Source of the DNA: Bacteroidota bacterium
GTDB taxonomy: Bacteria > Bacteroidota > Bacteroidia > Bacteroidales > CG2-30-32-10
Length of the DNA: 64,000 bases
Assembly (NCBI GenBank): GCA_013377115.1
Contig: JACAAW010000001.1
Coordinates: 17,063-81,062 of the forward strand
Direction: 5' to 3'
Shown one piece after another: positions 22,052 through 57,911 of the stretch. Each line of letters opens with the position of its first letter. Within the stretch, counting starts at the first letter, position 1. The notes beneath the pieces are model-generated. The model saw only the letters and a program-made list of their open reading frames with translations, did no database searches and was not told the DNA's origin. Position numbers and translations under genes: made by a program.

Positions 22052-23023
22052 TTAATTTGCTTTTAATTCTTTTACTGCAGAAATAAGGTCGGGCAATACT
22101 TTTTGTAAATCGCCAACAATTCCATAATCAGCCGCTTCAAAAATTGGAGCATCAGGATCTTTATTAACAGCAACAATGCATTTCGCACCACTTATTCCAC
22201 CAAGATGTTGTATTGCACCAGAAATTCCAAATGCAAAATACAAATTAGGAGCAATAATTTTTCCTGTTTGTCCGGTATGTTCTTCGTGAGGTCTCCAACC
22301 TTCGTCAGACACTGGGCGTGAACAAGCTGTTCCTGCGCCCAAAAGCACTGCTAATTCTTCAATTGGACCCCAGTTTTCGCCACTTTTCATTCCTCTTCCG
22401 CCAGAAACAACTATTTCGGCATCAGATAAAAGAATTTTTCCAGTAACTTTATTTACATCTACGACTTTGGTTTTAAAATCTGAGTCTTTCAATTCTGGAT
22501 TAAACTGCTCAATCGTTCCACTTGCTGGACCTTCAACCAAGCCGAAGGCATTTTGAAGAAGCGTTACAATTTTTACTGGAGTTTTAATAACCAAATTTGC
22601 CAATGCTTTTGAAGTATAGATCTTTTTTGTAATTGTAAACGGTTCTGTACTTGAAGGAAGTGTCATCACTCCTGTTGCAAGACCTGCTTTCAATCTAACT
22701 GAAAGTCTTGGAGCAATTGCTTTACCAGAATTATTATGAGCAAAAACTATTACAGTTGCATTTTCTTTTGCTACGGCTTCAGCCAAAACAGAAGTATAAG
22801 CTTGGTTGTTTAAACCATTCAATTTTTCGTTATTTGCATTTAATATTTTAGAAGCACCGTAATTGCTAAGTTTTTTTAATTCTTCTTCGCCAACATTACC
22901 AATAGAAACAACAACAACCGAAGTGTTGAGTTTTTTGGCAATTTCGTTTGCATAAGAAACCAATTCGAAGGATAGCTTTTTAAATTTACCATCCCAGTTT
23001 TCTGTATAAACTAATACTGACAT
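22052..23023 (-). CDS. etfA: electron transfer flavoprotein subunit alpha
   Basis: 323 aa. C-terminal FAD-binding region ([23 protein letters not shown]). Confidence 0.9.
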
Positions 23024-23180
23024 ATTTTTGAGTTTTAAATTTATATTAAAATATTAAAAGGGGTTCTGAAAATTAGAATTTTCTAGGCGAACAAGGTTTT
23101 AAAAAGCGGAGTTTACTAAAGTAAATGAGCATTTTTAAAATTGAAGTTCAACGACGAAAATGCAATTTTTATTAGTCCCG

Positions 23181-23927
23181 TTAAATTACTTTTGCCTCGT
23201 TGTGTAGAAGATTCACTAATTCTTTTACATTTTCTGGGTCAATTTTTTTACATGCTGCTTTTGGTTTTGGCATATCGAAACCAACAAACTCTGTGAAAGA
23301 ATCAGCTCCAACACCTTCAAAAACTTCCATTGGTTTTCCTTTTGCCATCATAATACCACGCATTGAAGGAATTCTAGGTTCTTTTGCAATCCCCTTCTGA
23401 ACGATGCCAATAAATGGTAGTTGAGCTTCAACGGTTTCTTGTCCACCATCAATTTCTCTTTTCAATTGAACTTGACCATTAATTACATCCAAATGCGAAA
23501 CTGCAGAAACAGAAGGCATATCAAGCAATTCAGACAACATTCCACCTAAAGCAGCACCGTTATAATCACTAGATTCTATTCCGCAAATTACGATATCGTA
23601 ATTGTCTTTTTTAACGATTTCGGCAAGCTGACTAGCCACAAAGAAAGTATCTTTAGGTTCCGCATTTACGCGAATTCCTTTATCAGCTCCAATAGCCAAC
23701 GCTTTTCTTATAGTTGGTTCAGTTTCTTGTGAACCAACCGTAACAACAGTAATAGTTTCAATTACACCTGGCTGAGCATCTTTAATATCTAGGGCTCTGG
23801 TTAGTGCTAATTCGTCCCAAGGATTGATAATCCACTGAACACCTGCATTGTCAAAAGTTGTATTGTTTACAAATTTTATTTTTGTAGTGGTGTCAGGAAC
23901 ATTACTAATGCAAATTAAAATTTTCAT
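23181..23927 (-). CDS. etfB: electron transfer flavoprotein subunit beta
   Basis: 248 aa. Typical EtfB N-terminus (MKILICI..VPDT..KI) located upstream of etfA. Confidence 0.9.
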   Translation of the reverse strand: MKILICISNVPDTTTKIKFVNNTTFDNAGVQWIINPWDELALTRALDIKDAQPGVIETITVVTVGSQETEPTIRKALAIGADKGIRVNAEPKDTFFVASQLAEIVKKDNYDIVICGIESSDYNGAALGGMLSELLDMPSVSAVSHLDVINGQVQLKREIDGGQETVEAQLPFIGIVQKGIAKEPRIPSMRGIMMAKGKPMEVFEGVGADSFTEFVGFDMPKPKAACKKIDPENVKELVNLLHNEAKVI

Positions 23928-23957
23928 AACGAGTAAAAAATATTTTAGTGTTTGTTT

Positions 23958-25097
23958 TTATTTTAATAAAGACCTAGAAATTACAATTTTTTGAACTTCT
24001 GAAGTTCCTTCGTAAATCTGGGTAAGTTTGGCTTCACGCATCAATCTTTCAACATGATATTCTTTAACATAACCATATCCACCATGAATTTGAACAGCTT
24101 CAGTAGTTACTTCCATTGCCATATCAGCACAATATTGTTTTGCCATTGCACTTGCTGTACCATAAGGTAAATGCTGGTCTTTTAACCAAGCAGCTTTTAA
24201 GCAAAGGTTTCTTCCGTTTTCAATTTTCACAGCCATATCAGATAATTTGAATGCATTGATTTGGTGGTTGAAAATTTCTGTTCCGAAAGCTTTTCTTTCC
24301 ATTGAATATTTTAGTGCTCTTTCAAATGCACCAGAGGCAATTCCTAATGCTTGAGAAGCGATTCCAATTCTACCACCTTCTAAAGTTTTCATTGCAAATG
24401 GAAATCCAAATCCATCTTCACCAATTCTGTTTTCTTTAGGAACAATTACATCATTAAACATTACCGAATGGGTATCAGAACTTCTCATTCCCATTTTATT
24501 TTCGTGAGGTCCTAATGTGATTCCAGGAGAATTTTTATCAACGATTAAAGCATTGATACCTTTGTGTTTTTTATCAGGATGAGTTTGTGCAATAACGATA
24601 TAAGTTGAAGCAGAATTTGCATTGGTAATCCAATTTTTGGTTCCATTTAATAAATAATGGTCGCCTTTATCTTCTGCAGTTGTTCTTTGTGAAGTGGCAT
24701 CAGATCCAGCTTCTGGTTCTGATAAAAGAAATGCACCAATTTTTTGTCCGCTAGCTAATGGTCTTAAGAATTTTTGCTTTTGCTCTTCATTTCCATAAGT
24801 CTCAATCCCCCAAATTACAAGCGAATTACATACCGACATAACAACCGCAACTGAAGAATCAACTTTTGATATTTCTTCCATTGCCAAAACATAAGAAATG
24901 GTATCCATACCGCCACCATCATATTTAGGATCTGTCATCATACCTAAAAATCCTAATTCGGCTAATTTTTTTATATGTTCTGCTGGAAATTCCGACTTTT
25001 CGTCTCTTTCGATAACATCGTGAAGTAATTCTCTTTCAGCAAAGTCTTTAGCTGCTTGCTGAATCATTTTTTGTTCTTCAGTAAATTCAAAATTCAT
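23958..25097 (-). CDS. short/medium-chain acyl-CoA dehydrogenase (butyryl-CoA dehydrogenase-like)
   Basis: 379 aa. LSEPEAGSD and a catalytic-base context YEGTSEVQ near the C-terminus. First gene of an acd-etfB-etfA unit. Confidence 0.9.
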   Translation of the reverse strand: MNFEFTEEQKMIQQAAKDFAERELLHDVIERDEKSEFPAEHIKKLAELGFLGMMTDPKYDGGGMDTISYVLAMEEISKVDSSVAVVMSVCNSLVIWGIETYGNEEQKQKFLRPLASGQKIGAFLLSEPEAGSDATSQRTTAEDKGDHYLLNGTKNWITNANSASTYIVIAQTHPDKKHKGINALIVDKNSPGITLGPHENKMGMRSSDTHSVMFNDVIVPKENRIGEDGFGFPFAMKTLEGGRIGIASQALGIASGAFERALKYSMERKAFGTEIFNHQINAFKLSDMAVKIENGRNLCLKAAWLKDQHLPYGTASAMAKQYCADMAMEVTTEAVQIHGGYGYVKEYHVERLMREAKLTQIYEGTSEVQKIVISRSLLK

Positions 25098-25338
25098 GGT
25101 TTAATATATTAAGTTTATAGATTTTTGGATTTGAAATAAATTACCAACTTCATCAAGAAGAGCAACAAAGATAAAAAATTTTTGGAACAAAAGTAATAGG
25201 AAATAAATTTTTACATATTTTGTTTATCCTACTAAAATAGAAGTGTATTTTCATTTATAGGTCTCATTAAATAAGTATTTTGTTTTCACCTTTTTAATTT
25301 TTATCTTTGCCTTATATTAATAAATTTGAAAAAAAATT

Positions 25339-26517
25339 ATGGCAACAATTCATTACAATGCCCCTGATTACTTCCTTTTAGACGAGCTTTTTACTGACGA
25401 ACATAAAATGGTTCGAGGTGCAATTAGAGACTGGGTAAATCGCTCAGTAATTCCAATAATTGATGATGCATGCCAAACACATACTTTTCCGAAACATTTG
25501 ATTAGAGAACTTGGAGAAATGGGTGCATTTGGGCCATATATACCACAAAAATATGGTGGCGCAGGATTGGATCATATTGCCTATGGATTAATTATGCAAG
25601 AATTGGAAAGAGGAGATTCGGGAATTCGTTCTATGGCTTCTGTTCAATCTTCTCTGGTAATGTATCCAATTTATAGTTTTGGTACTGAAGAACAAAGAAT
25701 GAAATATCTTCCAAAACTTGCCACTGGCGAATTGGTAGGTTGCTTTGGATTAACAGAGCCTAATCATGGTTCCGATCCAGGAAGTATGGTAACCAGAATT
25801 ACCGACAAAGGAGACCATTTCCTTCTTAATGGTGCAAAAATGTGGATAACAAATTCTCCAATTGCTGACATTGGTGTTGTTTGGGCAAAAGATGATAATG
25901 GAATCGTTCGAGGAGTTATCGTTGAACGTGGAATGAAAGGTTTTACAACTCCAGAAACGACAAAAAAATGGTCCTTAAGAGCTTCTTATACTGGCGAAAT
26001 GGTATTTGACGATGTGATAATCCCAAAAGAGAATTTATTAACTGGCGTTCAAGGATTAAAAGGGCCAATGTCCTGTTTAAATTCAGCTAGATTTGGTATT
26101 GCTTGGGGTGTTATTGGTGCAGCAATGGATTGTTATGATGTTGCCTTAAATTATTCAAAAGAGAGAATTCAATTTAAAAGACCGATTGCTGGATTTCAAT
26201 TAACTCAAAAGAAATTTGCTGAAATTCTTACAGAAATCACTAAAGCACAATTCCTAGCTTGGCGATTGGGTGTTCTTCGTAACGAAAATAGAGCCACTCC
26301 AGCTCAAATTTCAATGGCAAAAAGAAATAATGTAAAAATGGCTTTGGACACTGCACGTGAATCTCGCCAAATACTTGGGGCAATGGGAATCACTGGTGAT
26401 TTTCCAATGATGAGACATATGATGAATTTAGAATCTGTAATCACCTACGAGGGAACTCATGATGTTCATCTTCTAATTACAGGCCTTGATATTACAGGCG
26501 AAAATGCTTTTTCCTAA
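25339..26517 (+). CDS. gcdH: glutaryl-CoA dehydrogenase
   Basis: 392 aa. From recall it aligns with human GCDH over most of its length (CFGLTEPNHGSDPGSM, WITNSPIAD, ARFGIAWGV, ITYEGTHDVHLLI). Confidence 0.9.
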   Translation: MATIHYNAPDYFLLDELFTDEHKMVRGAIRDWVNRSVIPIIDDACQTHTFPKHLIRELGEMGAFGPYIPQKYGGAGLDHIAYGLIMQELERGDSGIRSMASVQSSLVMYPIYSFGTEEQRMKYLPKLATGELVGCFGLTEPNHGSDPGSMVTRITDKGDHFLLNGAKMWITNSPIADIGVVWAKDDNGIVRGVIVERGMKGFTTPETTKKWSLRASYTGEMVFDDVIIPKENLLTGVQGLKGPMSCLNSARFGIAWGVIGAAMDCYDVALNYSKERIQFKRPIAGFQLTQKKFAEILTEITKAQFLAWRLGVLRNENRATPAQISMAKRNNVKMALDTARESRQILGAMGITGDFPMMRHMMNLESVITYEGTHDVHLLITGLDITGENAFS

Positions 26518-26556: not shown

Positions 26557-29352
26557 ATGAAGCAAATTAATTTCAAAGTAAACGGAAAACATTATGGTCT
26601 TTTGGTGAATAGCCATGAAATGTTATCAACTGTAATACGAGAAAAGGTTGGATTAACAGGAACCAAAATAGGCTGTGAACAAGGTAGTTGCGGAGCATGT
26701 ACAGTTTTAGTAAACAACAAACCTGTTTTGAGTTGCATTACACCCGCTTTACGTTGCGAAAATGCCGAAATAATTACAATTGAAGCATTAGCCAAAGATG
26801 GAAAATTACACAAGCTTCAAGAAAAATTTGTTGAAAAAGGTGCCATTCAATGCGGATTTTGTACTCCAGGAATGGTGATGACAGCTCTCAGCCTGGCTCC
26901 AACCTTAAACAAGGATGAAGGTCTTGAATCAATGATGCATCAGATTAAAGATGGTTTATCAGGAAATTTATGCAGATGCACCGGTTATAAAAAAGTTATT
27001 GAAGCAGTTGCCGAATATGCTTTAGAAGATGCAAACATCATTGAAAAGCCTAAGAAACCAATAGAAACGAAAAGTGTAGGAGTTTCTAGACCGTATATCG
27101 AAGCCGAGAAAAAAGTAAAAGGTGCTGCAGATTATGCTGATGACATTGTAATGAAAAATGCTTTGCATTGTAAATTTTTACGCAGCATTTATCCTCATGC
27201 AAAAATCGAAAAAATTGACACCTCCGAAGCTCTCAAATTAGAAGGTGTTCATTATATAGCAATTGGAAAAGAATTGCCAATTACTTTTGGAGTTCTTCCT
27301 ATTTCTGCTGATGAAACAGCTATGGCAGTCGATAAAGTTCGCTATATTGGCGAAATTGTTGCCGCTGTTGCCGCAGATAGCGAGGAAATTGCAGCTGAAG
27401 CATGTAAATTAATCTATGTTCACTATAAGCCAATAAAAGAATTTTTAAAAATCGATGATTCATTAAACGACATTGGTACAAACGAAAAAATTCACGCGGC
27501 TGGAAAATTTAACAATAACATACATAAAAAGGCAGAATTACGTTTTGGAGATCAGCAACAAGGATTAAAAGATGCAGATATTACCACCAAAATGTCATTT
27601 GAATTTTTAGGCATCAATCATGGTTTTACTGAACCTCATGCTGCCACTGCATTTTGGGATGAAAATGGCTTGACAATAACCACTGCAACACAAGTTCCTC
27701 ATTATTTGCATCGCGCATTGGCAAAAGTTTTGGAAGTTCCTTTAAATCGAGTTCGAGTTATCAAACCTTATCTTGGTGGTGGTTTTGGCGGAAAAAGTGA
27801 TCCTTTTCCTCACGAAATGATTGTTTCTCATCTGGCTCGTAAAACTGGGAGACCTGTTCGCGTAAGATTATCTCGCGAAGAAGTTTTTCTTACCAACCAT
27901 GGACGACATCCATCAAAATTGTCGGTAGAAATGGGAATTTCAAAAGATGGATTTTTCAAAGTTCTCGATGCTGATATTGCCATTGATGGCGGAGCTTATG
28001 GAAGTTTTGGTATTGTAACTTCATACTATAACGGAGTTTTATTACAAGCTCCATACAAACTTGATAATTTTGGTTTCAGGACTTATCGAGTTTACACCAA
28101 CAAACCTCAATGTGGTGCAATGCGAGGCCATGGTGCTGTGAATTCCAGATATGCTGTTGAATCACTAATTGATGATTTAGCAAACAAAATAAATGTTGAT
28201 CCTTGCGAATTAAGATTAAAAAACTTCCTTGATTCTAACACCCAAACTGTTGGTCAATATCGAATTACTTCTAATGGAAGTCGAGAATCTTTGCTAAAAG
28301 TTATGGACCAATCAAAATGGAACGAACGCATTGGCAAATTAGAAACTGGTCATGGGCTTGGCGTTGCTTGCGGATTTTTTATTAGTGGAAGCGCTTTGCC
28401 AATTATCTGGAATGAATTACCACAATCAGTTGTTCATTTAAAACTTGATTTCGATGGCAGGGTTTTGATAACTTCTGGTTCCAGCGATATTGGTCAAGGA
28501 AGTGATACTATGCTTGCAATTATTGTTGCAGAAGTTCTTGGAATTTCGATGGACAAAATCTTTGTTTTGGCTGCGGATACATTGCTTACTCCTGTGGATT
28601 TTGGCAGCTATTCGAGTCGAGTTACATTTATGGCAGGTAATGCTGCAAAAGATGCCGCCGAAAACTTGAAAAAAGAAATTTTAGATGCTGTTGTAAAAGC
28701 AAAAGGAATTAATTCGGACGAACTTAATTTTGGAAATAACCGAGTATTTAGCAACGACAAAACTGTTGATTTATCTTGGGATGAAACTATTGAAATTTTA
28801 ACAGCAAAACGAGGAGCTGTTTGTGTAAGCGGAAAATACATTTCTCCAAAATTAGGTGGGGATTTCAAAGGAGCTGGAGCTGGATTAAGTCCTTCTTATA
28901 CATTTGGTGCTTGTGTTGCCGAAGTGAAAGTTGATACAGAGACTGGCCATGTAAAAGTTCTCAATGTTTGGGGAGCTCACGACTGCGGAAAAGCGCTAAA
29001 TCCAATGGCAGTTGAAGGTCAACTAGAAGGTTCGTGGCATATGGGCGCTGGACAAGCAATTAGCGAACAAATGAAATATTATAAAGGACTTTTATTAAAC
29101 AACAATTTCCTTGAATATAAAATCCCAACAACACTTGATACGCCAGATATTCATGCAAACATTATTGAAACAATGGATCCTGAAGGACCTTTTGGAGCAA
29201 AAGAATCTGGTGAAGGTGCAATTCATCCTGTGATTCCTGCAATTGCAAATGCAGTTTTTAAAGCTGTTGGTGTTCGAATTACACAATTACCGATTAGCGC
29301 AGAAGATGTTTTAGCTAAAATGAAAGAGAATCAAATTTCAAAAGAAAATTAA
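26557..29352 (+). CDS. molybdopterin oxidoreductase of the xanthine-dehydrogenase family with fused N-terminal [2Fe-2S] subunit; 4-hydroxybenzoyl-CoA reductase gamma-alpha-like
   Basis: 931 aa. The N-terminal ~160 aa carry two 2Fe-2S motifs (CEQGSCGACTV; CGFCTPG..CRCTGY). These are followed by the aldehyde-oxidase/XDH a/b-hammerhead and MoCo-binding domains. The specific assignment relies on the partner FAD subunit and the gene context. Confidence 0.65.
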   Translation: MKQINFKVNGKHYGLLVNSHEMLSTVIREKVGLTGTKIGCEQGSCGACTVLVNNKPVLSCITPALRCENAEIITIEALAKDGKLHKLQEKFVEKGAIQCGFCTPGMVMTALSLAPTLNKDEGLESMMHQIKDGLSGNLCRCTGYKKVIEAVAEYALEDANIIEKPKKPIETKSVGVSRPYIEAEKKVKGAADYADDIVMKNALHCKFLRSIYPHAKIEKIDTSEALKLEGVHYIAIGKELPITFGVLPISADETAMAVDKVRYIGEIVAAVAADSEEIAAEACKLIYVHYKPIKEFLKIDDSLNDIGTNEKIHAAGKFNNNIHKKAELRFGDQQQGLKDADITTKMSFEFLGINHGFTEPHAATAFWDENGLTITTATQVPHYLHRALAKVLEVPLNRVRVIKPYLGGGFGGKSDPFPHEMIVSHLARKTGRPVRVRLSREEVFLTNHGRHPSKLSVEMGISKDGFFKVLDADIAIDGGAYGSFGIVTSYYNGVLLQAPYKLDNFGFRTYRVYTNKPQCGAMRGHGAVNSRYAVESLIDDLANKINVDPCELRLKNFLDSNTQTVGQYRITSNGSRESLLKVMDQSKWNERIGKLETGHGLGVACGFFISGSALPIIWNELPQSVVHLKLDFDGRVLITSGSSDIGQGSDTMLAIIVAEVLGISMDKIFVLAADTLLTPVDFGSYSSRVTFMAGNAAKDAAENLKKEILDAVVKAKGINSDELNFGNNRVFSNDKTVDLSWDETIEILTAKRGAVCVSGKYISPKLGGDFKGAGAGLSPSYTFGACVAEVKVDTETGHVKVLNVWGAHDCGKALNPMAVEGQLEGSWHMGAGQAISEQMKYYKGLLLNNNFLEYKIPTTLDTPDIHANIIETMDPEGPFGAKESGEGAIHPVIPAIANAVFKAVGVRITQLPISAEDVLAKMKENQISKEN

Positions 29353-29359
29353 GCAAGAA

Positions 29360-30301
29360 ATGATAAAAGAACAATTATATTTCAAAGCTAAATCCATCGA
29401 AGAAGCTATTATTGAAGCAAATAATCATATTGCCAATTTTCGATATATTGCAGGTGGAACAGATGTTCTTGTCAATAAATTTCAAGGAAATGAGAACTCA
29501 AAAATGCTCATTGATCTTTCAGGTATAGATAGTTTAAAGCAAATTACTATTAAGGGAAATCAGGTAGAGATTGGTGCCCTCATTATTTTAGACGAATTAA
29601 AAAATCACAAAATCATTGCTGAAAGTTTTCCTGCATTATTTGAAGCCGCGCATGCTGTTGCCTCACCAATGATTCGTAAAACAGCTACAATCGGTGGAAA
29701 TTTACTATGCGAAAATCGTTGTACTTTTTACAATCAAACAGAATGGTGGAGAAAAGCTGCTGGATATTGTTTAAAATGTGACGGTGATATTTGCATTGCG
29801 ACAGGAGGAAAAAATAACTGCTTATCAAAATTCATTTCCGACACGGCCGTTGTATTGATTAGCATGAATGCAAGTATTGAAATTTTTGACAATAATCAAA
29901 CTTCAATAATTCCTTTAGAAAGTATTTATACTGGAGATGGTGTAAATCCAAGAAATTTAAGTAATTCTGCAATTATCAAATCTATTTTCATTTCGAATGA
30001 TGAAGGATTTACCTCAGTTTATAAAAAGTTGCGACAACGCGAAACCTTAGAATTTGGATCCTTAATTACTGCAGTTACAAAAAGTAAAAATGGAAAAATA
30101 AAGATTGTTTTAGGTGGTGTTGATCCAAAACCTATTGTTGTAGAGGGAATTGCAAATGATGATTTAAACGAACTTATCATAATAGCCAGTAAAAAAGCAC
30201 GAACCGTTGACAATGATATGTATTCCAGGAAATACCGGAAAGAAATGATTTCAGTATATTTGAAGAGAAGTTTTCAGGAATTGGGTTTAATTTTGCCTTA
30301 A
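29360..30301 (+). CDS. hcrB: FAD-binding subunit of the molybdoenzyme, with Cys-rich insertion (4-hydroxybenzoyl-CoA reductase beta-like)
   Basis: 313 aa. FAD_binding_5-type N-terminus (YIAGGTDVLV). An insertion LLCENRCTFYNQTEWWRKAAGYCLKCDGDICIATGGKNNCLS contains six Cys. Confidence 0.6.
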   Translation: MIKEQLYFKAKSIEEAIIEANNHIANFRYIAGGTDVLVNKFQGNENSKMLIDLSGIDSLKQITIKGNQVEIGALIILDELKNHKIIAESFPALFEAAHAVASPMIRKTATIGGNLLCENRCTFYNQTEWWRKAAGYCLKCDGDICIATGGKNNCLSKFISDTAVVLISMNASIEIFDNNQTSIIPLESIYTGDGVNPRNLSNSAIIKSIFISNDEGFTSVYKKLRQRETLEFGSLITAVTKSKNGKIKIVLGGVDPKPIVVEGIANDDLNELIIIASKKARTVDNDMYSRKYRKEMISVYLKRSFQELGLILP

Positions 30302-30329: not shown

Positions 30330-31070
30330 ATGAATTTAAAAGGAAAAACTGCAATTGTAACTGGTGGCAGTCAAGGAATTGGCGCTGCTATCGCATTAAA
30401 ACTTGCTGAACTTGGAGCAAATATCGTCATCATTGATCGCAAAGAAAAAGAAGCTTCAGAAACTACAAAGGAAATTGAAAACCTTGGTGTTAAAAGTTTT
30501 GTTGTTATTGCTGATATTTCAAATTTCCAAGAAGCCGACAATGCCGTGAATTCAATTATTAAGGAATTTGGAAAAATTGATATTTTGGTTAACAATGCTG
30601 GAATCAACATGGACGGTGTTATCTGGAAAATGACCGAAGACCAATGGGACAAAGTTATCAATGTAAATCTAAAAGGTTATTTTAATTATATCAGAGCAAT
30701 TTCGCCAATTTTCAGAGAGCAAAAATCAGGAAAGATTATTAATATTACTTCCATAAACGGACTTAGAGGAAAATTTGGACAATCAAATTATGCTTCTGCA
30801 AAAGCTGGTATTATAGGATTAACAAAAACTGTTGCTAAAGAACTAGGAAAATACAATGTAAATGTAAACGCTGTAGCTCCCGGATTAATTGAAACCGAAA
30901 TGATGAAAAACGCAGATCCTGTGGTTCGCGAAGCAGCAACTGCCGAAATTGTGTTGGGAAGAATGGGCCAATCTGTAGATATTGCAAATACTGTGGCTTT
31001 TCTGGCTTCCGAATTATCGCGCCATATTACAGGCGAAGTGATAAAAGTCGATGGCGGACAATATATTTAG
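30330..31070 (+). CDS. short-chain dehydrogenase/reductase, 3-oxoacyl reductase (FabG-like)
   Basis: 246 aa. TGGSQGIG, NNAG, catalytic YASAKAG. Confidence 0.85.
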   Translation: MNLKGKTAIVTGGSQGIGAAIALKLAELGANIVIIDRKEKEASETTKEIENLGVKSFVVIADISNFQEADNAVNSIIKEFGKIDILVNNAGINMDGVIWKMTEDQWDKVINVNLKGYFNYIRAISPIFREQKSGKIINITSINGLRGKFGQSNYASAKAGIIGLTKTVAKELGKYNVNVNAVAPGLIETEMMKNADPVVREAATAEIVLGRMGQSVDIANTVAFLASELSRHITGEVIKVDGGQYI

Positions 31071-44929: not shown

Positions 44930-45034
44930 AAACTATAAAAATTCAGGTGAAAAGCAGGATGTTAGATTTGAAGTTTTTAGGAGAATCAAAATACTTAACG
45001 AGTCCAAATTTAAATCTTTCTTAAAGTTATTTTA

Positions 45035-50166: not shown

Positions 50167-51330
50167 CTAATCCCAAAGTTTAATAGAATCTGAAAAAGTT
50201 CCAACCTGTTCTTTAATAACTTTAAACTGTCCTGTATTTTCACTATACAAGAAGCTTATGTAACGCATATTGTTTTCAATGCAGGCTTGTTGAAGAATTG
50301 GATGGTCTAATAATGCTGGGTCACAAAAACTAGGAGCAGCAAAAATAATTCCATCAACTTTTCTTTCGCTGGCAAGTTTTAATAATCGAGCTTCTTTCGG
50401 ATTATCAACGTCGTAAACTGATGAAGAGAAGGTGCTATTATTTAAATATGAGTGACTTAATGCTCTAAAAGGATCATTGCTGTCAGTTGGAATATCTCCT
50501 TGAATCCATCTGGTTCCTAAAAGGAAATCATCTTCAACAATATAACAACCTGCCAATTCAATAGCTCTAATTAATCCAACTGGAGGTTGCTCACAAAATG
50601 CTCCAATTACTAAAACTCTGATTTTATCTAGTGGCTCTCCACTTTCTTGATTAAGCAAACTAATTACTTTTTCAAGAATTTCATTATGCTCTTCAACTGG
50701 AATTACCAATCCTGCCCTTACAATATGGTAAACATCAGCAGCTGTTATTTTCCAAGGAGCAGCATCGCGAATGGAATAAATCTCTTCAGTTAATTTTCTA
50801 TTTTTATTGAACAAAGAAATAGAGTGATTAAGGCGTTCAGGTGTAATTTCAACATTGTTGATTTTTTTTACTTCTGCCAATACGTGTTCCATTTCTTGAA
50901 TATAGAAGGTTCCCCCAATATGAGATTTGAAATTTTGCGGATAATCCAGATATTTTACAAACTTACCTTTGTTTAAGAGTTTAAACATTCCAGATAAATT
51001 TCTGATAACATCACAAATAGAAGGAAAAATAAATCCATCAAAACCCTCAAAATGATTATCAAGAGCAAGCTCAATGATACCTCTGGGCATATGGCAAATA
51101 TAGGATTGATAATAAGCATCACCCTTTACTATTAGTTTTTTATCTCCACCACCCATTATACCAATGGCTAAACCATTTGCAGCATGTATAATTTCTCTAG
51201 GAAAATAAATTGGCATATAACCTACCAGAACCCTTGACTGATCCTGCGATTTCCACTCTTTTGCTCTAGTAAAATTTAAATCAAAGGAAAGATCTTCACA
51301 TTTACTAATAATTTCATTTAAAGATTCCAA
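50167..51330 (-). CDS. bcrC: benzoyl-CoA reductase core subunit (BcrC/BadD-like)
   Basis: 387 aa. VGYMPIYFPREIIHAANG signature. The ORF begins with TTG at 51330, and the next Met lies inside the conserved region, so a TTG start is likely. Confidence 0.7.
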   Translation of the reverse strand: MESLNEIISKCEDLSFDLNFTRAKEWKSQDQSRVLVGYMPIYFPREIIHAANGLAIGIMGGGDKKLIVKGDAYYQSYICHMPRGIIELALDNHFEGFDGFIFPSICDVIRNLSGMFKLLNKGKFVKYLDYPQNFKSHIGGTFYIQEMEHVLAEVKKINNVEITPERLNHSISLFNKNRKLTEEIYSIRDAAPWKITAADVYHIVRAGLVIPVEEHNEILEKVISLLNQESGEPLDKIRVLVIGAFCEQPPVGLIRAIELAGCYIVEDDFLLGTRWIQGDIPTDSNDPFRALSHSYLNNSTFSSSVYDVDNPKEARLLKLASERKVDGIIFAAPSFCDPALLDHPILQQACIENNMRYISFLYSENTGQFKVIKEQVGTFSDSIKLWD

Positions 51331-51357
51331 ATTGTAATTGTTTTTAATGAAGTTTTT

Positions 51358-51538
51358 TATAAAATCAAATATAGCAATCTAAATCAGTTATGTCAAATTT
51401 TAGAAATATTATAACAAATAACTAATCTTTATATCGCAAAGATAAAAATAAATCGACAAAAAACAAATCACAATTAAAAAAGGCGCCGTAAGTGCTGTTT
51501 TTCCTATCGCTTTAATAGGAAATTTAACTATTTTTAAC
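51358..51538 (-). promoter_or_regulatory. promoter/regulatory region, copy Y of the duplicated block (upstream of bcrC)
   Basis: On the minus strand: TTTG (51394-51397), N20, TATATTTG (51366-51373), 36 nt upstream of the TTG start. It carries the same 43-nt block as copy X and the palindrome TTCCTAT-N7-ATAGGAA (51501-51521). Confidence 0.7.
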
Positions 51539-51547
51539 TTTTCACTT

Positions 51548-53302: not shown

Positions 53303-53340
53303 AGCGAGACAACAAAAGTTTTAAAAACTTTTGTTATCTT
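53303..53340. repeat. REP-like imperfect palindrome H1
   Basis: agcgagacaacaaaagttttaaaaacttttgttatctt. Stem acaaaag/cttttgt extended by gaga/tatc. Located between the RAYT stop and the start of the preceding gene. Confidence 0.75.
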
Positions 53341-53343
53341 AAG

Positions 53344-53919
53344 CTAAGTCTGAAAATCAAGTTCAAAATTAGTATTTTCCATTAAATGAAATGCTTTAAA
53401 ATTATTTATATCCTCAAACATTTCAATAATTTCTTTTGAACCTAGCCATTCGCAATCATTTTTTGTAATAGCATTAAAAGAACTAAAATTGTAATCAGAG
53501 GCAACTGAACAAATTCCAGCTTCCACAGGGTTCAAGTGAATGTATCGAATAAGATTCTTAAGATAAATTTCGTCTTCTATTTGTTTACGTTTAAATTTAT
53601 ACTGAAATAAACTTCCAGTCCTATGATATTTTTTATTGATACTTTTAGCATATGAAATAAAAAAATCTCGAAAAGCTTTTTCAATTGGGGTTAAAGCTAG
53701 TTGTTTCGTTAAATTTTGATACTGCAATTTTTCATTTTCTTTTATTCTTATTAAAAAATGAAAATGATTATTCATCAAACAATATGAAAAGACATCAACA
53801 AATGGATCGAGGTATTGGCGAAATTTTTTCAGAAAATAATCATAATTCTCTTCCTCATAAAATATAATATCGCCATTGTTACCCCTATTAAATACGTGGT
53901 AATATCCGCCTTCAATCAT
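53344..53919 (-). CDS. REP-associated tyrosine transposase (RAYT; IS200/IS605 Y1 HUH family)
   Basis: 191 aa. HUH motif NNHFHFLI and catalytic-Tyr motif LIRYIHLNPVEAG. Confidence 0.85.
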   Translation of the reverse strand: MIEGGYYHVFNRGNNGDIIFYEEENYDYFLKKFRQYLDPFVDVFSYCLMNNHFHFLIRIKENEKLQYQNLTKQLALTPIEKAFRDFFISYAKSINKKYHRTGSLFQYKFKRKQIEDEIYLKNLIRYIHLNPVEAGICSVASDYNFSSFNAITKNDCEWLGSKEIIEMFEDINNFKAFHLMENTNFELDFQT

Positions 53920-53933
53920 TTCGTTTATCTTTT

Positions 53934-53972
53934 AGAGAAACTAAAAAAGTTTTTGAAAAATTTTTAGTCTTA
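53934..53972. repeat. REP-like imperfect palindrome H2
   Basis: agagaaactaaaaaagtttttgaaaaatttttagtctta. Arms aga(aa)ctaaaaa / tttttagtct with a 2-nt bulge. Immediately upstream of the RAYT start. Confidence 0.65.
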
Positions 53973-54001
53973 TACTGCTTTTGTATTCTTCCAAATAATG
54001 A

Positions 54002-54373
54002 TTATACTAGCATTCTATTTATAAAAAATTTAAAAAGGATCAGTGATGCAAAGGTTAAAATCAAAAATGACCAAGATAAAACTATTGATAAAAAATGACT
54101 TTTGAAAAACATCGGTTTCTCTTTAATTATTTTTTTTGCATACCCTTTTTTAACATAATAAAAATAATTAAAGACAAAGGGCAAAAGAATTATACCAAAT
54201 AAAATCCAATTATCTATTGTGTGCTTGAAAATTAACGAACTTAAGTAATCTGAAAATCCCATAACAAAAATCATTTCAGAAAAACTCAAAGAAAACCATG
54301 CGCTGAGTATTGGCTGGGTTTCCACCTTTGACCATTTATAGAATAAGTAATTATAGTAAAACAAAGTATTCAT
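54002..54373 (-). CDS. hypothetical small membrane protein
   Basis: 123 aa with 3-4 predicted TM helices. No recognisable motif. Confidence 0.4.
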   Translation of the reverse strand: MNTLFYYNYLFYKWSKVETQPILSAWFSLSFSEMIFVMGFSDYLSSLIFKHTIDNWILFGIILLPFVFNYFYYVKKGYAKKIIKEKPMFFKSHFLSIVLSWSFLILTFASLILFKFFINRMLV

Positions 54374-54458
54374 TCAAAAAAATATTGTTACTTACAAATT
54401 CTTGTAAAGATAGAAATTAGATAACTTCGTTTTATTTTATAAAATAAAAAACTTCATA

Positions 54459-54503
54459 AGCGAAAGACTACAAAAGTTTTAAAAACTTTTGTAGTCTCGC
54501 TTT
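54459..54503. repeat. REP-like palindrome H3 (also a likely terminator hairpin for the thiolase operon)
   Basis: aagcgaaagactacaaaagttttaaaaacttttgtagtctcgctt. Perfect 12-bp stem agactacaaaag/cttttgtagtct. Its core acaaaagttttaaaaacttttgt is identical to H1. Confidence 0.8.
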
Positions 54504-54519: not shown

Positions 54520-55764
54520 TTATTCCGCTTTTTTATAAACTATAGAAACTAAAGTTTTATCATCGCCACCCATATTAATGGTTAAACCATAAGGTCTTTC
54601 AGGTTTCATTGTAATTTGAGCATCACCAGCTTTTCCAGTTAGTTGTTCCCAAATAGTAACGGCTTGGTGAACTCCAGTTGCACCAGTTGGATGGCCCCAA
54701 CCAATTAAACCGCCAGTGGTATTAAATGGAACCATTCCTGTTCTAGAGGTATTTCCTTCTAAAACGAAATCGATTCCTTTTCCGTGTTCAGCAAAACCAA
54801 TGGCTTCGGTTGCCATTACGCCTGCAATTGTAAAACAATCGTGGCATTCAACAGTTCCAATTTGATCTTTTGTAACTCCTGCAGACTCGAAAGCTTTCTT
54901 AACCGCAACCTTTGTTGTTGAAAGAACTGTAGGATCTGTTGGTGGCTTTGTGATATCATCTTCTGCCATTCCAAATCCCATTACTTCAACTGCATCTTTT
55001 TTGTCAATACCGCATCTTCTCAAACCTTCTTCAGAAACAATTGCGATTGAACTTGCACCATCAGATACTTTTGAACAATCAAAAACATTTAATGAATCAA
55101 CAAAACCCTTTGGATTTGGAGTTACTAATCCACATGCTTGTAAATCTTTGGTTGTATTGTGGAATTCTTGTGCTGTAGGACAAAGACGTGCATTTTCAAT
55201 GGCGTTTGTAAACCATTTTGCCATTGCCGCTCTTGTTTTTTCTCTGTCAAATCTTTCTGCATAAGCTTTTGAGCGATCACTAAATTTTCCAGGGAAGAAA
55301 TAAGCATGACCTGTTTTTCTTTCTTTTGCCCAACCTGCTGCTGCAAGAATATCAGCTCCGTAAATTGCTTTAACCGTATTTTGAACTTCAACACCTAAAA
55401 CCAAAACAACTTCTGCTGTTTCAGCTAAGATAGATTTAATTCCCGCTGCTAATGCTAATGCACCAGTTCCACAAGCACCTTCAACTCTGGTACAAGGAAT
55501 ATATCTTAAACCTTCATCAATGTAAGGAATAAATCCTGCCATATTTGCTTGTCTGTTGAAACGAGAAGCAATAAAATTTCCAATAACGCCTTCGTCAACG
55601 TTTTTAGCACCACCGATTTGTTTAAGAACTGCCTGACCAGCTTCTCTGATATATTCTTCTAAGCCTGGACGCTCTTTTTTAGGATTGAATTCTTTTCTAC
55701 CGGTTCCCATCGAAATGGTGTTGTATCCGGCAACCATATATATTTTTCTACGTAATTTTGTCAT
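54520..55764 (-). CDS. thiolase-domain protein (SCP-x / non-specific lipid-transfer-type thiolase)
   Basis: 414 aa. Nucleophile context VEGACGTGALA, HDCFT and GHPTGATG motifs. Confidence 0.8.
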   Translation of the reverse strand: MTKLRRKIYMVAGYNTISMGTGRKEFNPKKERPGLEEYIREAGQAVLKQIGGAKNVDEGVIGNFIASRFNRQANMAGFIPYIDEGLRYIPCTRVEGACGTGALALAAGIKSILAETAEVVLVLGVEVQNTVKAIYGADILAAAGWAKERKTGHAYFFPGKFSDRSKAYAERFDREKTRAAMAKWFTNAIENARLCPTAQEFHNTTKDLQACGLVTPNPKGFVDSLNVFDCSKVSDGASSIAIVSEEGLRRCGIDKKDAVEVMGFGMAEDDITKPPTDPTVLSTTKVAVKKAFESAGVTKDQIGTVECHDCFTIAGVMATEAIGFAEHGKGIDFVLEGNTSRTGMVPFNTTGGLIGWGHPTGATGVHQAVTIWEQLTGKAGDAQITMKPERPYGLTINMGGDDKTLVSIVYKKAE

Positions 55765-55785
55765 TTTTAAATCCTCCTTATTTTA

Positions 55786-57117
55786 TTAATAATTGTTTAT
55801 TGGTCCGTAAGCATGGAAAAATCCTGTGAGTAACACTGTGTTCACGTCATTTTCGCTAAAAGCTACTTTATCAGAAACCAATTTTAAACCAATTTCTTTT
55901 GAACGTTTTGCATAATTTCTTGCAATTTCTGCTCCCATTGAATCAAAAGTTTTCAAATCATTGAAATAGGCAACGAAAACTTCTTCTTTCTTTTTGTTTC
56001 CAACCACTGCTTTCCATGGCTGAACAGAAGCTGGAGGATTTCCTAATTTTGAATCGCAATTTGCTTGGAATTCGTCAACAGCAACATAGGCTTTTTTATT
56101 CAAATCATAGAAACCAGTAACTCTTCCTTTTTCGTATTTTAGGAAACCATCTTTTTGCGAACCGTCGGAATTTTGTCCACCACGAACTCCAATTTCTAAC
56201 ATTTTGTCAAGTAAATCGCAATGCAAATTTTCGTCAGCAAGATAAGGATTCATAACACTCATGATATATTGACAAACATCGATTCCGACATAATCAATTA
56301 ATTGAAAAATTCCCATCGGACGAATCAAATAATCTTGAGTTACTTTATTAATCATATAAACAGCTTCAGGGAAAGAAGCAGTTGCCATTAATTTTTCTGC
56401 TTGAGCAATTCCGTATTGAGCATCACGCATAAAATGACCATTGCCAATAAATCCAGCAAAATCGTGAGAAGGAACAACGATTTTCTTAAGATTTTTAGCC
56501 AACATATTTGCAAACTCAACCAATTCCATGTCTGCATTTTCGGTTTTGATAATTTCAACCAATTTCTGAATTGCAGGTGGATTATAGAAATGAACTCCTA
56601 AAACTCTGCCACCTAAATTTGCTTTACTATCAATTACATTGATTGGAATTGAAGAAGTGTTGGTGCAGAACCAAGGTGATTTTTTGTTGTTTTGATTAAT
56701 TTGAGTGAAGATTTTAACTTTCAATTCTGGATCTTCTTTAATTGCTTCAAAAATAACAGTTGATTCATAAGCAGCTTCCAAATTCGTTGTAGGTCTAACA
56801 ATGAAAAGTACATCCTCAACATATTGATCAATGATTTCGCTGTTGTCAATTAAATCAGCTCTGTCTTCGTAAACTTTTCTAAGAGCAATTACTTTTTTCT
56901 CAGCAGCTTTAAGAACTTGAGTTTTTAGGTATTTCATCAAGCCTTTAAGAGCTTCACTGGAAGTATCCATTGCATTAAGCACAAAAAGTTTTCCTTTGTT
57001 TTCGGGCAATAAACTTAAATCTGCCATTTCAATAGCAGTAAGCAATAGGATTCCGCTACCCATTTTTCCTGCGGCTCCCAGAACGGTTACGTTTTGTAAT
57101 TTTTCTGAATAGTTCAT
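55786..57117 (-). CDS. 3-hydroxyacyl-CoA dehydrogenase (long form)
   Basis: 443 aa. N-terminal VLGAAGKMGSG Rossmann fold, HFYNPP motif, C-terminal HAD dimerisation-type domain. Confidence 0.8.
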   Translation of the reverse strand: MNYSEKLQNVTVLGAAGKMGSGILLLTAIEMADLSLLPENKGKLFVLNAMDTSSEALKGLMKYLKTQVLKAAEKKVIALRKVYEDRADLIDNSEIIDQYVEDVLFIVRPTTNLEAAYESTVIFEAIKEDPELKVKIFTQINQNNKKSPWFCTNTSSIPINVIDSKANLGGRVLGVHFYNPPAIQKLVEIIKTENADMELVEFANMLAKNLKKIVVPSHDFAGFIGNGHFMRDAQYGIAQAEKLMATASFPEAVYMINKVTQDYLIRPMGIFQLIDYVGIDVCQYIMSVMNPYLADENLHCDLLDKMLEIGVRGGQNSDGSQKDGFLKYEKGRVTGFYDLNKKAYVAVDEFQANCDSKLGNPPASVQPWKAVVGNKKKEEVFVAYFNDLKTFDSMGAEIARNYAKRSKEIGLKLVSDKVAFSENDVNTVLLTGFFHAYGPINNY

Positions 57118-57140
57118 TTTCTTTATTTTAATTTATTTTC

Positions 57141-57911
57141 TTAATTCCAGTTAGGTTTTCTTTTTTCAAGAAAAGCACGCATTCCTTCGGCACCTTCATT
57201 TCCAAACAAAGAGCCAAATTCTTTTGATTCAAGATCGCTGCCGGATTTAAAATCGGTCAGCATTCCTTGTCTTGTCACTAATTTTATTTTTTTAACAGCA
57301 TTAGGACCTTTTGAAGCAATTTTTGTTGCAATTGCAATAGTTTCAGACATTAATTGCTCTGGTTCTACAACTTTTTGAACCAATCCGATTCGAAGTGCTT
57401 CATCAGCAGTAATCATATCAGCAGTATAAAGCAGATACAATGCATTTGGAAGTCCAACAATTCTTGGAAGTCTTTGTGTTGCAGCATAACCAGGAATAAG
57501 TCCCAGATTAACTTCTGGCTGACCAAATTTTGCAAGATTACTTGCAATCCTGAAATCACATGCCATGGCAAGTTCGCAGCCGCCACCTAAAGCAAAACCG
57601 TTGATTGCAGCAATAACCGGAATCTCCAATTTTTCAATGCTATTAAAAGTATTTTGTCCAATTTTTGAGAAATTGCTACCTTGTTCGTCATTCATATCAA
57701 CCATTTCGGCAATATCAGCACCAGCAACAAAAGCTTTTCCATCACCAGTTAATATCAAAACACTAATATCTTTTCTTGCTGACACATCTATAAGCATTTG
57801 ATCCATTTCTGAAAAAAATCTGGTATTCAATGCATTCATAGCTTGAGGCCTCGAAATTTTAACAATACCAATTCCGTTTTCCACTTCAAGACTTAATATT
57901 TCGTAATTCAT
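57141..57911 (-). CDS. enoyl-CoA hydratase (crotonase)
   Basis: 256 aa. AFVAGADI, GFALGGGCELAMACD, FGQPEVNLG. Confidence 0.9.
   Translation of the reverse strand: MNYEILSLEVENGIGIVKISRPQAMNALNTRFFSEMDQMLIDVSARKDISVLILTGDGKAFVAGADIAEMVDMNDEQGSNFSKIGQNTFNSIEKLEIPVIAAINGFALGGGCELAMACDFRIASNLAKFGQPEVNLGLIPGYAATQRLPRIVGLPNALYLLYTADMITADEALRIGLVQKVVEPEQLMSETIAIATKIASKGPNAVKKIKLVTRQGMLTDFKSGSDLESKEFGSLFGNEGAEGMRAFLEKRKPNWN

Follow-up and report, generated by a model that had tools for sequence, protein, structure and literature searches.

A predicted class I benzoyl-CoA reductase cluster and an associated HgdX/KPR/activase module in an uncultured Bacteroidota bacterium

Introduction

A stretch of 64,000 nucleotides from a Bacteroidota bacterium (GenBank assembly GCA_013377115.1, contig JACAAW010000001.1, positions 17,063 to 81,062; here called the window) carries, between its positions 22 and 58 kb, genes that very probably encode the core of an anaerobic benzoyl-CoA pathway. 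At their centre lies bcrCBAD, predicted to specify an ATP-driven benzoyl-CoA reductase (BCR) of class I, and around it stand genes for opening the ring, for removing a para-hydroxyl group, and for beta-oxidation. Taken as a whole, the region is likely to be a native chromosomal catabolic island of an uncultured member of the Bacteroidota. It also holds a set of three conserved genes that encode a HadB-like iron-sulfur (Fe-S) subunit (HgdX), a ketopantoate reductase (KPR)-like oxidoreductase, and a stand-alone activase.

A preliminary description of this DNA had interpreted the interval as an anaerobic benzoyl-CoA degradation cluster covering a complete pathway. All of the genes that it named are open reading frames (ORFs) at the positions given, and match the families to which they were assigned. 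The observation is confirmed and the interpretation supported, with all functions, of course, being predicted; the pathway is complete by homology. Four ORFs between 22 and 58 kb resemble insertions or unrelated genes. The three conserved genes just mentioned were not part of that description.

In the anaerobic degradation of aromatic compounds, among them lignin monomers, aromatic amino acids, and pollutants, the reduction of benzoyl-CoA is the bottleneck. Were dozens of uncultured species of Bacteroidota and Ignavibacteria to share a conserved and native cluster for it, an abundant phylum would become a candidate degrader of aromatics. By the names of their records, the genomes with related clusters seem to have been recovered from lakes, bogs, groundwater, and wastewater plants. 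The kind of pathway is, of course, already known. What is added here is a HgdX/KPR/activase module whose parts are linked by gene fusions, together with an exchange between ADP-forming and AMP-forming ligases in a single slot of the cluster. The cluster would offer a cheaper, ADP-forming activation of acids, a BCR without a dedicated ferredoxin gene, and an uncharacterised radical-enzyme module.

Sequences and searches

ORFs between 22 and 58 kb were scanned against NCBIfam and Pfam; the window holds 55 substantial ORFs. Scores are quoted as bits over the curated equivalog cut-off of the NCBIfam model. Relatives were sought by a BcrB scan of one genome per GTDB species. This listed more than 591 matches, of which the best 80 were examined as loci; all of these 80 come from metagenome-assembled genomes (MAGs), and statements below on BcrB identity and on numbers of species-level genomes refer to them. 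Synteny of related loci was assessed by tblastn. A metagenome scan, queried with a fusion of KPR and HGD-D domains from one related locus (L061), returned 79 loci, of which 38 carried the fusion. Related loci are labelled in the style L001, with L083 to L120 being among those that have the KPR/HGD-D fusion family. Pathway functions were assigned from homology together with gene context.

Benzoyl-CoA reductase and ring opening

Four adjacent genes on the minus strand, in the order C-B-A-D, form the reductase cluster: bcrC (50167-51330), bcrB (48818-50089), bcrA (47402-48784), and bcrD (46545-47369). The first two encode HGD-D-type subunits, BcrB being the catalytic-type one, and the last two encode ATPase subunits of the BcrAD_BadFG type, which is the composition of a class I BCR. 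The catalytic-module subunits BcrC (TIGR02263, 456.5/421.15) and BcrB (TIGR02260, 632/486.55) reach curated equivalog scores. The ATPase subunits BcrA (TIGR02259, 416.2/578) and BcrD (TIGR02261, 306.5/312.85, just below) do not, although these families are still their best matches, far above the alternatives.

The residues expected to bind Fe-S clusters are also in place. Among 66-75 homologues, the three ligand cysteines of the catalytic subunit are conserved, as are the two in each ATPase subunit for the bridging cluster. Five cysteines of BcrC are kept in at least 97% of 72 homologues; BcrB conserves Cys88, Cys123, and Cys366, and also Cys93, Cys330, and Cys333; Cys277 and Cys320 of BcrA are invariant, and Cys132 and Cys171 of BcrD are conserved. 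The corresponding cluster ligands of BzdO are Cys95, Cys128, and Cys380 (PMC11971306).

Class I reductases have been divided into BCR, MBR, and BZD types (PMC11971306). Here, BcrB reaches 632 bits with the benzoyl-CoA reductase model and 173 with HadB, BcrC reaches 456 with its own model and 164 with HadC, and the models for bzdO and bzdN yield no more than 84 and 93 bits. The best match of BcrB in the PDB is MbdO (9g87_A), at 190 bits. These scores point to a reductase of the BCR (Thauera) type rather than the BZD type, and we have high confidence, jointly with the core pathway, in the prediction that BcrCBAD reduces benzoyl-CoA at the expense of ATP.

The genes that would process the reduced ring lie on the same strand. 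Had, the 6-hydroxycyclohex-1-ene-1-carbonyl-CoA dehydrogenase (40749-41810; TIGR03201, 451/338.65), and Oah, the ring-cleaving hydrolase of the BamA type (39640-40722; TIGR03200, 593.4/464.45), both pass their cut-offs. The Dch-like dienoyl-CoA hydratase (38331-39104) falls below its own (TIGR03189, 212/292.5), which is still its best match. The next-best families lie far away for Oah (BadI, 125 bits) and Had (136 bits), and the next for Dch is a generic crotonase (157 bits). The order had-oah-dch, co-located with bcrCBAD, is conserved across phyla.

Removal of a para-hydroxyl group is assigned to a 4-hydroxybenzoyl-CoA reductase-like molybdenum enzyme on the plus strand, as the preliminary description had proposed for 26557-30301. 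Its gamma and alpha subunits are encoded by a fusion of hcrC with hcrA (26557-29352; TIGR03194 for alpha, 816/995; TIGR03193 for gamma, 152/258), which is the norm in 16 loci, and its beta subunit by hcrB (29360-30301; TIGR03195, 208/405). All three scores are below the cut-offs. For alpha and beta the expected families match best, with xanthine dehydrogenase models far behind; the gamma domain is matched slightly better by two related models of 2Fe-2S subunits (165 and 163 bits against 152). The Fe-S loop of HcrB, RCTFYNQ(T/S)EWWR..GYCLK..GD.C......C, aligns with the Thauera Hcr beta subunit (1RM6_B), with all four cysteines matched. The FAD subunits of aldehyde oxidoreductases (5y6q_B, 5g5g_B) also align over the loop region with lower scores, and the loop may not be unique to Hcr.

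Beta-oxidation and electron transfer

Downstream of hcrB on the plus strand follow a short-chain dehydrogenase/reductase (SDR; 30330-31070), a candidate 3-hydroxypimelyl-CoA dehydrogenase by family match, and a thiolase (31095-32288), a candidate 3-oxopimelyl-CoA thiolase on the same grounds. An SDR gene stands near bcrCBAD in many phyla. The glutaryl-CoA dehydrogenase (25339-26517, plus strand), preceded by a promoter motif at 25279-25309, is predicted to be of the decarboxylating type; it scores 416-432 bits against the decarboxylating enzymes 3D6B, 2EBA, and 1SIQ, and 227 against the non-decarboxylating Desulfococcus enzyme 3MPI. On the minus strand lie an acyl-CoA dehydrogenase (23958-25097) and the two subunits of an electron transfer flavoprotein, EtfB (23181-23927) and EtfA (22052-23023), all matched to their families. 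EtfA is nearest to a bifurcating Etf (5OL2_A) and EtfB to non-bifurcating ones, which leaves the type ambiguous.

A divergent thiolase (35065-36261) and a divergent bifunctional protein of 701 amino acids (32953-35058), both on the minus strand, form a further pair. The second of these joins 3-hydroxyacyl-CoA dehydrogenase and enoyl-CoA hydratase (ECH) domains, with 23% identity over 500 residues to the 3HCDH_N+ECH_1 protein of L020. Both members of the pair are found again in L016 and L072, and L035 has the thiolase only. L081, the closest long relative, has a hotdog-fold thioesterase (12043-12498 of that locus) after the activase, and further downstream a conventional thiolase and an 821-aa 3-hydroxyacyl-CoA dehydrogenase protein stand in place of the divergent pair.

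Short-chain beta-oxidation is represented by family matches to an SCP-x-type thiolase, a 443-aa 3-hydroxyacyl-CoA dehydrogenase, and a crotonase (54520-57911, minus strand). These bring the totals between 22 and 58 kb to three thiolases, four crotonase domains, and several 3-hydroxyacyl-CoA dehydrogenase or SDR genes, in agreement with the earlier count. The segment 51548-57911 has no counterpart beside bcr in the best 80 of the more than 591 relatives, save weak crotonase matches and one weak FabK-like match; the link of the genes at 54520-57911 to the cluster is, judged by gene order, specific to this genome.

Acid activation and missing partners

The gene at 42842-44929 on the minus strand encodes an ADP-forming acyl-CoA synthetase (ACD), in accordance with the enzyme family assigned earlier (NF045493, 550 bits; TIGR02717, 451 bits; both below the cut-offs). 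It fills the slot that an AMP-forming ligase occupies in most other Bacteroidota loci. The best matches of those AMP ligases are FadD-type, not benzoate-CoA-ligase-like, and one locus (L119) has both an AMP ligase and an ACD. The ACD is a candidate activator of aryl acids.

As the preliminary description had noted, no ferredoxin is found in the window and no regulator inside the cluster. The sole CxxCxxCxxxCP motif in the window lies inside QueG, and the related loci share no conserved family of ferredoxin size. A dedicated ferredoxin gene beside bcr is typical of characterised clusters and is not strictly defining. BcrCBAD must draw its low-potential electrons from a ferredoxin or flavodoxin whose gene lies elsewhere in the genome. 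As to regulators, the clusters of the high-GC lineages do include one, a TetR gene.

Helpers for the molybdenum cofactor (MobA-like and XdhC) are likewise absent from the window. Genes for a hemerythrin (L028 1549-2085), a MobA-like nucleotidyltransferase (L039 1209-1823), and XdhC (L028 6896-7687) accompany hcr in 15-17 other Bacteroidota loci.

A native region of a Bacteroidota genome

The host is, by the agreement of housekeeping flanks, composition, promoters, and relatives, a member of the Bacteroidota, whose nearest MAGs among the matches listed are labelled Bacteroidales. The GC content of the window is uniform at about 0.30-0.38, and GC at third codon positions (GC3) lies between 0.17 and 0.29 in every ORF. 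Tetranucleotide frequencies of the cluster correlate with those of the flanks at 0.97-0.99. The flanking genes include queG, ribF, atpD, fba, tgt, a two-component pair, an extracytoplasmic function (ECF) sigma factor, and a TonB-type receptor with a CarboxypepD_reg domain (58192-60576). The best named matches of Tgt are from Bacteroidota only, at 75-78% identity, while metagenome sequences reach 95-96%. The tryptophanase TnaA (12309-13685) passes the equivalog of the Porphyromonas gingivalis type (890/750).

The promoter pattern TTTG-N17-21-TAnnTTTG occurs 12 times in the window against 6.5 expected, a number reached by 3 of 100 shuffles. Such Bacteroidota-type motifs stand directly upstream of bcrC, of the ACD gene, and of the glutaryl-CoA dehydrogenase gene; others lie in intergenic regions beside nitroreductase and MMPL genes. 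Among the matches listed, the nearest relatives of both BcrB and HgdX are Bacteroidota MAGs with the same gene order.

Uniform composition, Bacteroidota promoters, the placement of Tgt and TnaA, and syntenic Bacteroidota relatives together argue that the region is native and not chimeric. There is no sign of chimerism. The view that the genes do not look recently imported, which the preliminary description had based on composition, is supported, and the marker-gene placement that could have overturned its interpretation did not do so. Of the Bacteroidota features that it had seen in the flanks, the TonB-type receptor, the promoters, and the composition stand, while DUF4249 went undetected in 60580-61392. 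The Rfam and tRNA scans found no rRNA or tRNA gene in the window.

Distribution of the cluster

The cluster is widespread in public MAGs, and not unique to this genome. Fifty-eight species-level loci, with BcrB identities of 71-90%, have the recurrent order bcrCBAD-ligase-...-had-oah-dch with hcr nearby. Their labels are Bacteroidota (43), Ignavibacteria (6), "Chlorobiota" (3), Calditrichaceae (2), and odd or unspecific (4), with Bacteroidota including Bacteroidales, Bacteroidia, Flavobacteriales, Vicingaceae, Saprospiraceae, and Chitinophagaceae. Identity of BcrB falls with the label: 85-90% in Bacteroidales, 71-80% in other Bacteroidota and in Ignavibacteria, and 62-66% in other phyla (Planctomycetota, Acidobacteriota, Polyangia, Krumholzibacteriia, Gemmatimonadales).

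The closest clade listed (85-90%) has exactly the order of the window, bcrCBAD-ACD-KPR-had-oah-dch-HgdX. A relative's 217-kb contig shows the same order over 20 kb, then activase-thioesterase-thiolase-3-hydroxyacyl-CoA dehydrogenase, with thiolase-SDR-hcrB-hcrCA on the opposite strand. Other Bacteroidota have [hcrB-hcrCA-(MobA-like, XdhC, hemerythrin)-SDR] bcrCBAD-AMP ligase-HgdX-KPR/activase fusion-thiolase-had-oah-dch. In phyla outside the Fibrobacterota-Chlorobiota-Bacteroidota (FCB) group, the order is had-oah-dch-bcrCBAD-SDR.

The HgdX/KPR/activase module

Three genes on the minus strand, interleaved with those for ring opening and acid activation, make up the additional module. HgdX (37093-38328) is a single HadB-like [4Fe-4S] subunit of the benzoyl-CoA reductase/2-hydroxyacyl-CoA dehydratase (BCR/HAD) radical enzyme family, scoring 221 bits on HadB, 159 on BcrB, and 98 on BzdO, and 178 against 3o3m_A in the PDB. 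The stand-alone activase (36296-37042), an archerase-type ATPase, passes its cut-off (TIGR00241, 167.5/125). The KPR-family (PanE-like) NAD(P)H oxidoreductase (41831-42799; TIGR00745, 167/141) has the Pfam domains ApbA and ApbA_C.

Cysteines 41, 90, 128, 299, and 356 of HgdX are kept in at least 95% of 40 Bacteroidota homologues and are invariant in 20 from other lineages. Cys90, Cys128, and Cys356 align with the cluster ligands of HadB; Cys41 and Cys299 are additional. HgdX thus has the three-cysteine site of a 2-hydroxyacyl-CoA dehydratase, and with it a dedicated activator. The heterodimer of those enzymes is not seen: a second HgdX paralogue was found neither in the window nor at the loci of its relatives, and the window and the Bacteroidota loci each have a single HGD-D gene outside bcr. 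The reductase partner belongs to the KPR family, and the operon has an ACD or AMP ligase and no CoA-transferase.

The motifs WxK and TEID of the KPR-like protein, which we take to carry its catalytic Lys and Glu, line up with the same residues in KPRs of solved structure. In sequence it lies closer to 8WL1, 2EW2, and 3WFI, the last presumably the D-mandelate dehydrogenase of Enterococcus, than to PanE of E. coli. Dehydrogenases for D-mandelate and D-2-hydroxyisocaproate are among the members of the KPR family (PMC12350541; 10.1101/2024.01.05.573888).

Gene fusions tie these proteins together in two different ways. Within the fusion family of Bacteroidota loci, a single polypeptide of about 616 amino acids combines KPR and activase, with both domains in 29/29 (verified by NCBIfam in L019); in 24/29 a ligase or ACD immediately precedes HgdX and so stands two genes upstream of the fusion. 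In L061, from a genome of 68% GC, KPR is fused instead to an HGD-D domain (4479-6812; 777 aa). This second fusion family, of about 760-785 amino acids, is the one found in 38 metagenome loci; an activase follows the fusion in 30/30, and an ECH gene precedes it in 23/31. The long loci of this kind have Had in 15/23, Hcr in 11/23, ACD in 7/23, and BcrB in 1/23, and 14/21 have an HgdX orthologue (44-53% identity) with an activase of its own. The KPR-fused HGD-D domain lacks all three cluster cysteines, while the HgdX orthologues keep all five. One such locus (L087) contains a true Oah (565/464) and a true Had (432/339), and in L087 to L089 ACD-activase-HgdX is a separate unit.

Two types of fusion, together with co-location in distant lineages, show the predicted HgdX, KPR, and activase to be one functional unit linked to the benzoyl-CoA clusters of those lineages. 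That it is an undescribed and widespread ATP-activated Fe-S radical enzyme system, performing a step beyond the textbook benzoyl-CoA pathway, is a reading to which we give somewhat less than even weight. Candidate steps are the dehydration of aryl-lactyl-CoA, by which acids derived from phenylalanine or tyrosine would reach benzoyl-CoA, the removal of a function derived from a meta-hydroxyl group, or ring reduction in lineages that lack a nearby bcrCBAD.

Two other roles were considered and set aside. Conversion of glutaconyl-CoA to 2-oxoglutarate, to serve ferredoxin reduction of the KGOR type, does not fit a glutaryl-CoA dehydrogenase that is decarboxylating and loci that mostly have an AMP ligase; AMP-forming ligases are effectively irreversible, and a rough thermodynamic estimate for the conversion is unfavourable. 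An electron pump from NAD(P)H to BCR, made of the KPR/activase fusion, is unlikely, as no flavin or other two-to-one electron converter is present. The use of the position of His131 in BzdO to discriminate reductases from dehydratases was dropped, since BcrB itself has Phe there.

The benzoyl-CoA cluster of L087 (65% GC) has three further genes between had and ACD-activase-HgdX (14085-17436): one resembling type III polyketide synthases, one of the DUF6165 family, and an ORF of 537 amino acids that matches no family.

Proposed pathway and its alternatives

In the pathway that these genes would support, aromatic acids are converted to CoA thioesters, with 4-hydroxybenzoyl-CoA losing its para-hydroxyl to the molybdenum enzyme HcrCA/HcrB. 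BcrCBAD would reduce benzoyl-CoA to a cyclic dienoyl-CoA at a cost of ATP. Dch would then hydrate, Had oxidise, and Oah hydrolytically open the ring to give 3-hydroxypimelyl-CoA, which the SDR or a 3-hydroxyacyl-CoA dehydrogenase, together with a thiolase, would carry to glutaryl-CoA. Glutaryl-CoA dehydrogenase would deliver crotonyl-CoA, and crotonase and the enzymes that follow it would deliver acetyl-CoA, with electrons from the acyl-CoA dehydrogenases passing to Etf.

The module would add to this a ligase or ACD, a KPR of the D-2-hydroxyacid dehydrogenase type, HgdX, and the activase, taking a 2-oxo acid by way of a D-2-hydroxy acid and a 2-hydroxyacyl-CoA to an enoyl-CoA. For example, phenylpyruvate or phenyllactate might give cinnamoyl-CoA, and one round of beta-oxidation would then yield benzoyl-CoA or 4-hydroxybenzoyl-CoA. 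Such a side entry, a branch of the 2-hydroxyacyl-CoA dehydratase type feeding aryl-C3 acids, is favoured because the parts match the logic of the clostridial dehydratases, because a ligase or ACD lies directly upstream of HgdX, and because ACD-activase-HgdX can form a separate unit. Even so, it is offered tentatively, as the leading reading at well below even probability.

Several observations weigh against parts of this proposal. The window has no canonical benzoate-CoA ligase, ferredoxin, regulator, transporter, or molybdenum-cofactor helper; BcrA, BcrD, Dch, and HcrABC score under their equivalog cut-offs; and the related genomes, as said, are all MAGs. The aryl-lactate branch in particular must contend with a single HgdX subunit where the known enzymes are alpha/beta heterodimers accompanied by a CoA-transferase, and with the fact that neither an aminotransferase nor a CoA-transferase is linked to the module. 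Minimal clusters such as L019 need their ligase, SDR, and thiolase for benzoate, leaving no spare hydratase or dehydrogenase for the round that starts from cinnamoyl-CoA.

The same minimal clusters, in which every other gene already has a role with benzoate, invite the alternative that the module is not a feeder at all, but a new reductase or dehydroxylase of the BCR/HAD family that acts on a ring-substituted intermediate. Its substrate might be 3-hydroxybenzoyl-CoA (from protocatechuate or 3-hydroxybenzoate), with KPR reducing a ring ketone, or 2-hydroxyglutaryl-CoA derived from hydroxylated rings; in lineages without bcrCBAD nearby, the module might be the ring reductase itself. Many lineages do keep the module inside the dch/had operon, with bcrB present in 1/23 of the long metagenome loci while Had, Hcr, and true Oah are there. 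Their two HGD-D-type and two ATPase-type genes recall the composition of a class I BCR, and HgdX has two invariant cysteines beyond its three cluster ligands. However, HadB matches HgdX and its orthologues better than BcrB or BzdO does, and the fused HGD-D partner lacks cluster ligands, unlike the cluster-bearing BcrC and BzdN (PMC11971306). The Bacteroidota clusters, moreover, already have BcrCBAD and Hcr, and the known substrates of KPR enzymes are free 2-oxo acids rather than CoA esters. We consider this, the main alternative, slightly less probable than the side entry.

It is more improbable that the island serves mainly other substrates, such as methyl- or hydroxy-substituted analogues of benzoyl-CoA, phenylpropanoids, or alicyclic acids, or that it runs in another direction. 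The sub-threshold scores of BcrA, BcrD, Dch, and Hcr would be in keeping with this, as would FadD-type ligases that are not benzoate-CoA-ligase-like, and the best solved relative of BcrB is a subunit of 3-methylbenzoyl-CoA reductase. Against it, BcrB, BcrC, Had, and Oah all pass models built on benzoyl-CoA enzymes, and ATP-coupled ring reduction is regarded as practically irreversible. The preliminary description had also asked whether the Bcr-like proteins are 2-hydroxyacyl-CoA dehydratases of amino acid fermentation and the crotonases generic, with no aromatic pathway present. Homology does link these families, and the window contains one true HadB-like gene in HgdX; the margins given above for BcrB over HadB, BcrC over HadC, Oah over BadI (593 against 125), and Had over its next family (451 against 136), and the co-location of had-oah-dch with bcrCBAD across phyla, make this extremely unlikely. 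A chimeric window, or a recent import from Proteobacteria, is just as remote. A few related loci do bear odd labels (Gammaproteobacteria, Bifidobacteriaceae, Chlorobiota), but composition and codon bias are uniform, Bacteroidota-type promoters precede the operons, BcrB identity falls with taxon label, and the relative's 217-kb contig repeats the same 20-kb order.

Comparison with known systems

The most familiar point of reference is the cluster of Thauera aromatica (bcrCBAD-fdx, dch, had, oah; hcrCAB; KGOR). Shared with it are a four-subunit BCR in the order C-B-A-D, the Dch/Had/Oah route, a three-component molybdenum Hcr with the Fe-S loop in its beta subunit, and a decarboxylating glutaryl-CoA dehydrogenase. 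Here, however, no ferredoxin or KGOR stands beside bcr, HcrC is fused to HcrA, an ACD (a FadD-type AMP ligase in relatives) takes the place of benzoate-CoA ligase, and the HgdX/KPR/activase module is extra. The host, a Bacteroidota bacterium of about 33% GC, is also no denitrifying betaproteobacterium.

BzdNOPQ of Aromatoleum sp. CIB (BZD type; PDB 8S02; PMC11971306) shares the BCR/HAD family, a [4Fe-4S] cluster bound by three cysteines of the catalytic subunit, and a conserved Glu in a PE(N/I) motif. The enzyme of the window differs in being of the BCR type. The third residue after the second cluster cysteine is Phe in BcrB and Val in HgdX, as against His131 after Cys128 in BzdO (PMC11971306).

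The clostridial systems HadBC/HadI/LdhA/HadA and FldABC/FldI/FldH resemble the module in combining a reductase, CoA activation, an Fe-S dehydratase, and an ATP-dependent activator. HgdX is most like HadB, and the three cluster cysteines and the stand-alone activase are common to both. Unlike those systems, the module has one HGD-D subunit in place of an alpha/beta pair, the partner found elsewhere being fused to KPR and having lost its ligands. Its reductase belongs to the KPR and not to the D-2-hydroxyacid dehydrogenase family, it has a ligase or ACD where those systems have a CoA-transferase, and it is embedded in a predicted oxidative aromatic pathway, not in a fermentation operon.

The closest published precedent found is that of the Krumholzibacteriota MAGs with bcrABCD (PMC10936416), an uncultured FCB lineage from anoxic habitats for which class I bcr with dch, had, and oah was predicted. 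A Krumholzibacteriia locus in our set (L064) has 64% BcrB identity and the order had-oah-dch-bcrCBAD-SDR, without the HgdX/KPR/activase module. In that survey, of 2024, neither bcr nor bam genes were found among 37 FCB representatives outside Krumholzibacteriota (PMC10936416); in the present set, the cluster occurs in 43 species-level genomes labelled Bacteroidota and 6 labelled Ignavibacteria. The preliminary description knew of no characterised Bacteroidota pathway, and a full-text literature search, from which subscription journals were mostly missing so that absence is not proof, likewise returned no description of a class I BCR cluster in Bacteroidota and none of a KPR/HGD-D/activase module.

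Promoter duplication, insertions, and flanking genes

The promoter region of bcrC (51354-51542, minus strand), recognised by motif and repeat searches, contains two TTTG...TAnnTTTG motifs and a hairpin, TTTCCTAT..ATAGGAAA. A diverged copy of it lies upstream of the ACD gene (45030-45218, minus strand), the two forming a direct repeat of 189 nt with 78% ungapped identity, and part of the duplicated region also precedes the glutaryl-CoA dehydrogenase gene (25279-25315). Between bcrD and the ACD gene sits a protein with a BRO-N domain, resembling phage antirepressors (45445-46296), which is absent from the syntenic L081. Since bcrD and the ACD gene are 6 bp apart in L081, the promoter copy may restore transcription after the BRO-N insertion.

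Three other places account for the remaining ORFs that look like insertions or unrelated genes. Between dch and oah is a gene for a four-helix-bundle protein (39139-39549; TIGR02436), which L081 lacks; inverted repeats of 26 nt (39114-39139 and 39599-39624) enclose it, and the segment 39114-39624 has the look of a small mobile insertion. Within 53307-54497, between 33-nt palindromic repeats (53307-53339 and 54465-54497), stand a REP-associated tyrosine transposase (53344-53919) and a membrane ORF of 123 amino acids, together at 53344-54373. Inside the cluster, at 32292-32825, is a 177-aa protein with a signal-peptide-like N-terminus and no Pfam family.

In the flanks, the Porphyromonas-type tryptophanase adjoins a second ADP-forming acyl-CoA synthetase (13714-15807, the pair spanning 12309-15807), beyond the 22-58 kb interval. 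L046, L060, and L063 have homologues of the 12309-13685 lyase near bcr, with 45-46% identity. The four ORFs 3' of the TonB-type receptor (60580-63969) match no Pfam family. The tgt ORF (9285-10538) has an N-terminus about 40 codons longer than most homologues (376 aa; 90% query coverage) and overlaps a divergent glycosyltransferase ORF starting at 10495; the true start of tgt is probably further inside.

An alignment of 12 regions upstream of bcrC gave no common motif. A palindrome, TTCGATATG-N-CATATCGAA, is found upstream of bcrC in L012 (about 700-741) and L006 (about 880-926) only, the window being without it; in those two loci it could be an operator.

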